Position numbers: made by a program
Assembly (NCBI GenBank): GCA_965215885.1
Contig: CBDCEW010000105.1
Span: 128,001 to 192,000 of the forward strand
DNA: 64,000 bases
Source: Candidatus Moanibacter sp.
Lineage (GTDB): Bacteria > Verrucomicrobiota > Verrucomicrobiia > Opitutales > UBA2987
Reading direction: 5' to 3'
In this document: positions 27,001 through 30,000 of the stretch, piece after piece
How positions within the stretch are numbered: position 1 is the stretch's first letter
How the letters are laid out: each line of letters begins with the position of its first letter

Positions 27001-30000
27001 CATTTTTACCAGCCCGCTGGTAAGATCGGCAGCTTTATAAGCTGCGATCGATCCCGTAACACCGATCACGATCGTCTTACCTGCTAATTTCTCCGACATG
27101 GCTTGTTTTCTTAGGAAGGAACCTATCTATCTCAAATAGTAGCCCGTTGACGATCAAGAAATATGGTTCTGTTCCTCAGTTGGGAGTGTTTCGATTGGGG
27201 ATTTTCAATAAACCCTCTTCCCAGAGATTGCTTCTCCGGCTTGACAAGCAGTTCGAGAGGAACTTAAATACAATGAAAACACTATAATGAGCAGCCTCCG
27301 GCCATTTCATTCAGCGCTTAGCGCTCTGCTGCGACTTCTCCCCTGAGGGGGAGGAATTTATATTGTACATATTATTGTGTTGTTGGCCGGATTCCTATGC
27401 GTCGTTTCAGGACGCACCTGCCCGCGAAAATCACTCCGGCTTCTCGTTGGTTTTATTTAATATTCGTTTAAACAAAGTCGTTAACTATCTTACCTGAAGA
27501 AAAATGCAAAAAAACCCTGCCACGAAGTATCGCCCCTTTCCGACCGTCGATCTGCCGGACCGGCAGTGGCCCAACCGCGTCATCGATACTGTTCCAATCT
27601 GGTGCAGTGTTGACTTGAGAGACGGCAACCAGGCCCTCGCCATTCCGATGAACGTCGGAGAGAAGATCGAACTCTTCCAGGCTCTTGTCCAGATTGGCTT
27701 TAAAGAAATTGAAGTCGGATTCCCTTCCTCATCGGATACGGAATTCGAATTCACACGCCAATTGATTGAAGATGGGCTCATCCCCGATGATGTCACTATT
27801 CAGGTGTTGGTGCAGGCACGCGAACATCTGATTCGCCGTACCTTTGAATCTATCCAAGGAGCCGGACGTGCTATCGTCCACCTCTATAATTCCACAAATC
27901 CTCTACAGAGAAGAGTCACTTTCGGGAAAAGCAGAGAAGAGATAAAAGCGATTGCGGTCGATGGAACAAGACTCATTCGGGAGTTGGTGCCCACAATTCC
28001 CCAAACCGATGTGCGTTTCGAGTATTCACCGGAGAGTTTTTCAGACACAGAGCTGGAATTCTCCCTCGAAATCTGCCAAGCGGTCATGGAAGTATGGGAA
28101 CCGACGGAGGAAGAGCGGATCATATTGAACCTTCCCGCCACCGTCGAATTAGCTACTCCGAACGTTCATGCGGATCAAATAGAGTGGTTCTGTCGAAACA
28201 TGAAGGAGCGTGGGAAAGCAATAATCAGCCTGCACACGCATAACGATCGCGGGACCGGAATCGCCGCGACCGAATTGAGCCTGATGGCGGGAGCCGAACG
28301 CGTCGAAGGCACTCTCTTCGGCAATGGTGAACGTACCGGAAATCTCGACATCGTGGTAGTCGCGCTGAACATGTACTCGCAGGGGATCGATCCCAAATTG
28401 CATCTCAGCGGCTTGAACGCAATCCGGAGAACCTATGAACGGTGCACCCGAATGATCGTTCATGAACGCCACCCTTATGCCGGCGAACTGGTCTTTTCCG
28501 CATTCAGCGGTTCTCACCAAGATGCCATAAAGAAGGGAATGGACAAGATTGATTCTCCTTCCAATTGCCTATGGCAAGTCCCTTATCTTCCCATGGATCC
28601 GGAGGACATCGGACGTACTTACAAGGCGATCATCCGCATCAACAGTCAAAGTGGAAAGGGTGGAGTAGCCTTCATTATGGAGCGCGAATTCGGAATTGAA
28701 ATGCCCAAGAACATGCACCCGGAATTCGGCGCCGTGGTCAACCGGATTGCCGACGCGAAAGAAAAAGAACTCTCCGCTGAAGAAATCAAGGAGGCTTTTT
28801 TCAGTGAGTATTTGAATCTCAACTCTCCCTTGTCACTCGAATCCTACCAGATCAAGACAGAGCCGGACGACCACAGAAATATCACTTTTTTGGCGAATGT
28901 CATTGATCGTGGTAAGAAAAAGCACATCGAGGGTACCGGTAACGGGCCCATTGCCGCCTTCGTCAACGCGCTCGAACGTGAAAATCTGAAAAACTTCAAA
29001 GTCGCGGACTTCAGGCAACATGCTATTAACAAAGGATCGTCCGCCGAAGCCGCTACTTACCTCGAAGTCGAGCGTGTTCATGACCAGATGAGCTTTTGGG
29101 GTGCCAGTATCGACGGAAACATCGAACTGGCGGGTCTCAAAGCATTGGTCAGCGCCTACAACCGCGCCAATAGGGAAATCTCTCCAATAAGAGAGAAGGC
29201 GCTCGTCTCCGCCGAGTCAGGTCCGGCCGAGGATTAGGCCAACTCACGGCAGGCGGATTTCCCGACAATGAGATAACGTTTAACTTGGTAATTCCCCGTA
29301 GCTTGCTACGGGGTGCTGACTTGACTGTATTGTCATCGTGCGCGGAGCGCCCGATCCACCAGTAGCAAGGATGCTAGTGGTGGAACGGCCCCTCCGGGGA
29401 CGTTCGTATCAACTTCGAGTAAAGCATAGGCAAGTTCTGCACAAATGGCGAAAGAGTTAGATACCCCGTCCGCGGCAAGCCGGGACGGGGAGTGTTCATT
29501 TGAGATTGAAACTGGCTTGGTAGGAACCCACCCCTGTCCCCTCCGAGGGAGGGGATCTTTTCAATCGGTCTGAGTTTTTTTAAATCCCCTCCTGGGAGGG
29601 GACAGGGGTGGGTTCTTAAGAATCAAGATTCCGAGATCTTTTCTCGTCCTACTCCGCCTCCATCATCCCCCTGATCGCTTCAGAAATCTGGCCCCCCATC
29701 ACGGCTAATCCCCTGTCCAGGGATGCTACAAGGGCAACGAAGCTCCGCCCGTCCCAACTTTTGCTGAAATCGGTCGATCCATGAGTAGTGGGTGTGGGCT
29801 TGGCTGCTTCCGTATCTCTGATCATCCATTTCGCCTGAACTTCTGCGTTGTAAGTGGATTCGTCACCATCAAAACGCAGAATTTCGACCTCCACCACATA
29901 GTCCGGACTCGTCTTATCTGGCCAGGGAAACCGCACCACTTCCACCTCCGAGAGTGACTCCGCCAGATGTCCGGCCAAGTTTCGACCGATCGCCACATCG

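Follow-up and report, generated by a model that had tools for sequence, protein, structure and literature searches.

Several described leader ORFs resemble the one analysed here, which lies upstream of leuA in the order Opitutales and ends at a conserved hairpin that we call HP1. A close match is the pheL leader of Enterobacteria. In the accessible text of the pheL study, about half of the homologues end in UUC-CCC-UGA while the rest carry extra codons, and the C's of the proline codon pair with downstream G's in pause and antiterminator hairpins (PMC3082878). HP1 leaders likewise run from a cognate codon through CCC towards a stop, with the C's paired to G's downstream, but pheL is described there with an antiterminator and a U-tract terminator, neither of which was found in HP1 leaders; the amino acid in HP1 leaders is leucine, and they lack a Shine-Dalgarno (SD) sequence. 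The leuL, Leu_leader and Streptococcus leuA leaders, as far as the available part of PMC5314783 covers them, also place a leucine-rich ORF before leuA, and leuL has a hairpin at the leader end, where the portion of PMC9291695 at hand places hairpin pauses in leuL, pheL and hisL. Two traits of the leuL type, enrichment of the cognate codon and a hairpin over control codons and stop (1:2), were both found in HP1 leaders, whereas 2:3 or 3:4 structures, a U-tract and an Rfam match were not.

Terminator-less control-codon leaders have been predicted in Actinobacteria, and their regulatory mode has been at issue since; in the LEU element, according to the part of the report available, the leucine run pairs with the SD sequence of leuA itself about 80 nt away and closes a pseudoknot (PMC1262725). 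HP1 leaders and LEU elements, as characterised there, share the type of leuA, the absence of a terminator, and a CUN run (CUUCUCC) paired with a purine SD-like strand. In HP1 leaders, however, the partner is a local GGGGA 2–5 nt off, 105–264 nt before an SD-less leuA. One Streptomyces locus (L341) is the actinobacterial leuA leader that we examined directly. Among terminator-less leuA leaders of Alphaproteobacteria, a 'LEU1' type was reportedly described by Lopatovskaya et al. in 2010, a study cited in PMC4833913.

Control of Rho termination by a leader ORF is known from tnaC and mgtL, which belong to the same group as speF, and the rut/Rho logic of tnaC provides a precedent. HP1 leaders differ from the TnaC arrest peptide in having no conserved residues before the Pro-stop and a variable stop position. 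In speF, where Rho acts under leader-ORF control, orf34 is, in the accessible portion of the report, a short ORF with a long spacer and no intrinsic terminator (PMC6386406). HP1 leaders share these traits; unlike orf34 as described there, they have no detected arrest peptide conservation or alternative structure.

The leuA leader of Candidatus Moanibacter

The window is a stretch of 64,000 nucleotides from Candidatus Moanibacter sp., and coordinates below count along it. Its leuA gene (27504..29237, plus strand, ATG at 27504) encodes a 2-isopropylmalate synthase of the yeast/actinobacterial type that matches TIGR00970 at 762.8 bits (cut-off 697.4). The divergent neighbour on the minus strand (26551..27099), given for context only, has a phosphopantothenoylcysteine decarboxylase (CoaC-like) domain that scores below the cut-offs of both families. 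A TTGACA hexamer on the plus strand (27241..27246), read from the sequence, is the −35 element of the probable leuA promoter; a weak −10 candidate with a poor consensus match follows at a spacing of 17 nt (27264..27269), a promoter scan made no call at either element, and we infer that transcription starts near 27276.

The leader ORF (27287..27346, plus strand) starts with an ATG at 27287, is leucine-rich and short-leadered, and has no SD sequence. The earlier note had placed a leader of 19 codons 217 nt before leuA; the 19 codons were correct, whereas 217 nt is the start-to-start distance and the gap from stop to leuA is 157 nt. A small hairpin within the ORF (27313..27325, plus strand) is kept in the family of the window only. 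It is followed on the same strand by a putative control-codon tract, Leu-Leu-Arg(CGA)-Leu-Leu (27326..27340), which is C-rich and G-poor, and by HP1 (27335..27354), whose 5' arm consists of Leu-Leu-Pro codons, whose loop holds the UGA and whose 3' arm is GGGGGAGG. The 3' end of the leader is CTC CCC TGA (27338-27346). An untranslated spacer (27355..27503, plus strand) extends from HP1 to leuA; it has more C than G and no intrinsic terminator, begins with an AU-rich stretch (27355..27383, plus strand) and is a candidate zone for Rho loading and termination.

The sequence CTCCCC-N2-5-GGGGA occurs in one place in the window when both strands are scanned (expected 0.22). Among 131 looser matches in the genome, only the leuA site had a TTGAC upstream together with a short in-frame ORF that stops at once. 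As the earlier note had reported, Rfam holds no match (the best for the window has E=1.1), and five comparison loci likewise gave none at the gathering threshold.

Distribution across the order

Of 401 Opitutales genomes, 287 match the leuA of the window at E<=1e-100. We read the upstream regions of 145 of these, taking the best-scoring listed matches first and then 30 chosen for missing families, so that the sample is biased to closer relatives. The pattern CTCCCY-N1-5-GGGR stands 105–264 nt 5' of leuA at 72 of the 145 loci, spread over 15 of the 26 families and 42 genera, and occurs in 0.7% of shuffled upstream regions. The design had been said to be kept across families of the order, and its spread proved wider than that claim.

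The 73 loci without the motif are heterogeneous. In family f22, each of the 15 loci has another type of leader, in which Leu-Arg(CGA)-Leu is followed in nearly all cases by a long hairpin, and other leucine-rich leaders were seen at four loci of family f17 and one of f3; no convincing leader was seen at the remainder. Some genera have lost the whole leader: genus g16 has none, and TTGACA lies 42–43 nt 5' of the leuA ATG. Within the phylum, leuA is preceded by several designs (classical with terminator, HP1, the f22 long hairpin, the f17 variant, or a deleted leader). HP1 was found upstream of none of 31 ilvB loci, and none was seen before leuC, leuB, cimA, leuS or ileS in the genome of the window.

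Comparison of the 72 loci yields a common architecture. A conserved promoter is followed by a short-leadered mRNA whose first ORF has 15–40 codons, the last third of them leucine-rich. The ORF ends in or just past a hairpin with the 5' arm CUN-CUC-CCY, and a terminator-less spacer of about 90–250 nt with more C than G follows. In 68 of the 72, TTGAC(A/T) lies 34–66 nt ahead of the leader start, at 34–39 nt in about half of them, a distance short enough to suggest that many leader ORFs are leaderless or have a very short 5' untranslated region.

Reading frame and codon content of the leader

We read CTC CCY as Leu-Pro and looked in each frame for an ATG or GTG at least 12 codons upstream, lying behind the promoter and connected without a stop, and for a stop within 7 codons. 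The upstream start was present in frame in 71 of the 72 leaders and the stop in all 72, while neither of the other two frames had both in any leader (0/72). As judged from these counts, the leader is a selected ORF. Leucine makes up 45% of the nine codons before CTC in frame versus 8% and 3% off-frame across the 72 leaders, and occupies position −1 in 60 of them. The median leader has 6 leucine codons in 20 (range 3–10), and the presence of just 3 in some leaders counts against the attenuator proposed below. CUU and CUA account for 30% and 16% of the leader leucine codons as against 10% and 4% in 27 leuA genes, and C and G contribute 41% and 19% of the leucine tract. An in-frame CGA-CUN occurs in 21 of the 72 leaders and 16 of the 42 genera, the window included; CGA supplies 22 of the 46 arginine codons that precede CUN, versus 8% of the arginine codons in leuA.

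The ending Leu-Pro-stop, which the earlier note had treated as the defining feature, does not hold as such: the stop follows Pro directly in only 38 of the 72 leaders (20 of 42 genera) and comes 1, 3, 4 and 5 codons past it in 2, 15, 10 and 7 leaders. This bears on the idea that the leader works through a Pro-stop arrest or a +1 frameshift at CCC-UGA, as in TnaC or pheL. All 72 leaders have Leu-Pro in frame, the stop comes next in the 38 just mentioned, the +1 frame of the window is open until 6 nt before the leuA ATG, and CCC-UGA is shift-prone in pheL in the accessible text of PMC3082878. Yet sense codons follow Pro in 34 leaders, no residue upstream of Pro is conserved (the peptides diverge except for their leucine richness), a +1 frame open as far as leuA was found in 8 of 42 genera, similar to the other frames (12 and 9), and the same text judges the pheL frameshift incidental (PMC3082878). 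We regard this explanation as very unlikely. Coupling to leuA through a second upstream ORF or a frameshift was rejected: none of the frames stays open to leuA consistently, and the phase varies.

We also considered that leuA might be preceded by a REP-like hairpin or 5' stabiliser retained for reasons other than leucine sensing. Similar CUCCCC/GGGGA hairpins are repeats in many phyla, and the genome of the window itself has such a repeat family with 11 copies by pattern. But the hairpin at leuA is a single copy having promoter and ORF context, its frame is strict and biased to leucine, and other leucine leaders take the same place in other families, so that this reading strikes us as highly improbable. 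Sensing of leucine by a stalling ribosome is very probably what the leader does, as read from the sequences, since it is the only reading that covers the frame, the codons, the position and the replacement by other leucine leaders.

The hairpin HP1

In the window HP1 folds at −13.1 kcal/mol with a z of −1.3, so its stability alone is not unusual. Across the alignment the constant part is the CUCCCY arm with its GGGGA partner, enclosing a loop of 2–5 nt. The five core pairs are present in 72 of 72 leaders with zero compensatory change, an invariance that is partly built in because the search pattern fixes the core, and RNAalifold gave 3 pairs and no covariation; the little covariation noted earlier is borne out. 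The stop had been placed at the hairpin loop, which agrees with the fold in the window but is no rule for the order, as a loop stop was found in 41 of the 72.

Could HP1 itself be a terminator? It might act as a weak intrinsic terminator, assisted by NusA or NusG and blocked directly when a ribosome stalls on the 5' arm. Six to seven U's follow HP1 in genus g57 (L089, L099) and five in L024, the tail in the window passes a loose scan, and the leucine codons make up the arm. However, at least 5 U's in the 8 nt after the stem were found in only 10 of the 42 genera, and a ribosome proceeding to the stop would cover the hairpin too; we consider a terminator role for HP1 rather unlikely. The U-tract of g57 is not explained by loss of rho, which was found there. 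For the window, the statement that no U-run terminator follows is confirmed: the tail reads AAUUUAUAUU and has no U-run, although the loose scan classes the tail as terminator-like.

The strand behind HP1 is AU-rich: over the 42 genera, A+T makes up 60% of the first 14 nt versus 33% of the next 16. This conserved stretch favours an output through mRNA decay with the same sensor, in which RNase E/G would cut behind HP1 once the ribosome leaves and a stalled ribosome would hide or refold the site. The genome of the window (90% complete) encodes RNase E/G, RNase Y was not found in it, and the accessible portion of the speF report offers a precedent with RNase G (PMC6386406). Part of the A-richness, however, comes from in-frame UAA stops after GAG, and no alternative fold was detected. 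We hold decay to be unlikely as the output.

Other structures around HP1 were local. A candidate long-range helix on the plus strand (27297..27391) would pair 27297-27304 with 27384-27391 and enclose HP1; at the window locus it has p 0.02, and p<=0.05 was reached in only 3 of 42 genera, so the helix is at most a candidate feature of this locus. An outer helix between the 5' part of the leader and the region after HP1 likewise looked convincing within families f38, f12 and f2 and at the window locus, and was rejected across the 42 genera, where it did not rise above shuffles (mean duplex z −0.42, with 5 of 42 below −1.65). No second hairpin after HP1 was stabler than shuffles (mean z −0.2).

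Candidate outputs: terminator, start site and Rho

No conserved intrinsic terminator was found in the 72 leaders, where loose matches are scattered over 20, and none in the window. Strong terminators were present in all five leuA leaders from other classes within the phylum that we picked by eye as controls. Two leaders of ilvB paralogues within Opitutales have U-tract terminators, which means that the order uses them elsewhere. Pairing of a freed G arm into an antiterminator reached p<=0.05 in 1 of 42 genera, with a median p of 0.5 versus shuffles.

Translational control in the style of the actinobacterial LEU element or of polycysteine leaders, with the position of the ribosome opening or closing the initiation region of leuA, was assessed at the leuA start. 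The CUUCUCC leucine tract paired with its purine strand is similar to the base stem of the LEU element, as seen in the available part of PMC1262725 and at the Streptomyces locus; the 3' arm of HP1 is SD-like, the 16S rRNA of the window genome has a canonical anti-SD, and polycysteine leaders provide a precedent in the accessible part of bioRxiv 10.1101/834739. On the other side, an SD-like word stands before just 4 of the 72 leuA genes (and 2 of the 72 leaders), as against 18% of 2184 long ORFs in the window genome. Pairing with the leuA start did not exceed shuffles, with p<=0.05 in 2 of 42 genera for the leucine tract, 2 for the G arm and 5 for the ORF. The modelled accessibility of the start was 0.60–0.61 whether the ribosome was absent, stalled on the leader or positioned at the stop, and the lack of a consistently open frame or fixed phase to leuA also weighs against coupling. 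Control at the leuA start is, we believe, quite unlikely.

With intrinsic termination and SD masking both examined and neither found, factor-dependent termination is among the outputs left, and it is by this elimination that we arrive at it. We propose that the ribosome mediates leucine attenuation here with no intrinsic terminator involved; Rho-type termination is the likeliest output, at a little short of an even chance. HP1 would act as a pause ('protector') hairpin at which RNA polymerase waits for the ribosome. With ample Leu-tRNA the ribosome would complete the ORF and exit at the stop in or beside HP1, and the bare C-rich leucine tract and spacer would load Rho, ending transcription ahead of leuA or in its first part. 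When leucine is short, the ribosome would halt on the CUN codons, shield the leucine tract and keep HP1 open, so that the polymerase could get to leuA. In a folding model, a ribosome at leucine codons −3 to 0 abolishes HP1 (from 0.75 to <=0.03), a loss that follows from the footprint assumed.

The C–G skew between −100 and −10 has a median of 0.21 in the 42 leader genera versus 0.05 in 28 genera that lack a leader; it is 0.19 in the window and −0.03 in 1258 non-coding upstream regions of its genome, a modest excess read against controls that are partly not 5' UTRs and among kin that are not independent. The pyrimidine-rich spacer may serve SD-less initiation only. Two further observations count against the model: the C residues predicted to be unpaired in the spacer differ little among the modelled states (19.1 with the ribosome stalled, 20.7 free, 22.0 at the stop), and the E. 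coli pause consensus follows HP1 in 14 of 42 genera, barely higher than the 20% background. A rho gene was found in 64 of the 67 genomes searched, mostly as two paralogues, and so near-universal a gene does not discriminate; among the leader-carrying genomes, rho was not found in G333 (89% complete).

Relation to other leuA leaders

The earlier note had called the leader a leucine-sensing element of a new form. The sensing half gains from the frame test, the leucine enrichment, the promoter position and the loss of the leader in some genera, whereas the newness is diminished by pheL and by Alphaproteobacteria. We read 27 alphaproteobacterial loci with the same type of leuA and found a leucine leader at 24, a stop in the hairpin loop at 18 and CGA-CUN at 17; the HP1 motif occurred at none of the 27. 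The loop stop recalls the 41 HP1 leaders noted above, among them that of the window, and CGA-CUN the 21 HP1 leaders and all 15 f22 loci. The alphaproteobacterial hairpin differs in beginning about two codons past the last leucine and in its variable sequence, a second CGACTT often lies downstream, and many of these loci have an SD-like word before leuA.

The label 'new form' is overstated. What is particular to the Opitutales leader is the CUCCCC/GGGGA sequence, the use of leucine codons as a hairpin arm, and a leuA without an SD sequence, and by their defining features the classical and LEU families would not include it. The leader is real and well conserved, and apparently uncatalogued. The literature searched, which excluded subscription papers and supplements, yielded no description of a leuA leader in Verrucomicrobiota, nor any of RNA-level regulation in this phylum, although ORFs of this kind could stand in the leader tables of PMC4833913. 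The HP1 family would thus document predicted RNA-level regulation in Verrucomicrobiota, together with several designs at one locus.

The family, in 72 natural variants, is also a compact test case for leaders that have control codons but no terminator. In contrast to the actinobacterial form, its leuA has no SD sequence to hide, and it therefore separates transcriptional from translational models. More speculatively, and we are doubtful of this, the Opitutales element could be the simplest form of a class of leucine attenuators that spans phyla and works without a terminator and independently of an SD sequence, with a single CUN run serving as sensor, pause-hairpin arm and Rho entry site and the ribosome as sole switch. 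The class so conceived would take in the HP1 type, the f22 type and the alphaproteobacterial CGA-CUN leaders, with readout possibly by one of the order's two Rho paralogues.

Occurrence in genome contigs and RNA assemblies

A pattern scan of genome contigs returned at least 108 stretches. Among the 80 read with their flanks, 16 have a proper leader, several of which duplicate leaders counted before; 15 of the 16 are titled Verrucomicrobiota or Opitutales, and BLAST listed leuA downstream in 14. The other 64 stretches listed are REP-like or coding and are without leuA.

RNA contigs for one relative locus (L294) came from four runs of one study. As assembled contigs only, they are uninformative on start, end, strand and level; all four end 10–25 nt either side of the predicted start and leave the promoter gap uncovered. 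The fourth ends within the ORF, and the other three span the complete leader ORF and leuA in one piece.

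Other leucine leaders upstream of leuA

Two further kinds of leuA leader were seen within Opitutales besides the one that ends in the conserved CUCCCY/GGGR hairpin (HP1). All 15 loci of family f22 (L230-L232, L235-L239, L242-L248) carry a second leader type distinct from HP1, a short ORF located 130-260 nt upstream of leuA with Leu-Arg(CGA)-Leu close to its end in every case. In nearly all of the 15 loci a conserved hairpin of considerable length comes after the ORF, then a spacer rich in pyrimidines, and no conserved U-tract terminator was found in these f22 leaders upstream of leuA. 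A third, Leu-rich variant occurs in family f17 (L066, L079, L081, L228), where three of the four leaders end in Pro-Leu-Leu-stop within a hairpin different from HP1.

At five loci from other classes of the phylum (L278, L280, L282, L287, and L290, controls picked by eye), leuA is preceded by a Leu leader of the classical kind, each with a strong U-tract terminator. In ten alphaproteobacterial loci (among L342-L367), CGACTT is found two or three times within 400 nt upstream of leuA. This repetition suggests tandem Leu leaders at these loci.

Leaders at ilvB and ileS

Val/Ile-rich leader ORFs were present upstream of ilvB in 7 of 31 loci (L300, on contig C44 of the Moanibacter genome at about 25750-25860, and L309, L317, L325, L328, L331, and L333). 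The stop directly follows the Val run, and no U-tract terminator was evident at these seven leaders; classical terminators are present at two ilvB paralogues (L329, L338). An Ile-rich leader was also observed at a second ileS copy of the Moanibacter genome (L369; contig C7, about 2250-2500), where the terminator is of the classical U-tract kind and the SD is clear. The genome's other ileS differs, and the second copy is possibly a transferred gene or a contaminant contig.

Additional features of the window and genome

A four-codon ORF whose stop overlaps the ATG of the window leader (TAATG) and a perfect TATAAT across that ATG were both noted at 27273-27287; conservation of these two features was not seen among relatives. 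Past the divergent CoaC-like gene, an intergenic 29-nt sequence is directly duplicated in tandem (26409-26467). The recurrent CGA-CUU codon pair (27331-27338 in the window) has its complement in the decoding region, close to the 3' end of the 16S (contig C102); this match is probably a coincidence of rare codons.

A hairpin similar to HP1, CUCCCC/GGGA, recurs with conserved flanks in at least 11 copies in the Moanibacter genome (contigs C38, C40, C43, C53, C67, C78, C80, and C105). None lies within a Leu leader, and the family is REP-like.

Most Opitutales genomes searched have two rho-like genes, one with a long open frame and one whose frame is short, at about 380-450 aa (in the Moanibacter genome, C89:74027-75274 and C45:21721-22836). 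Each of four matching genomes from other classes has a single copy.
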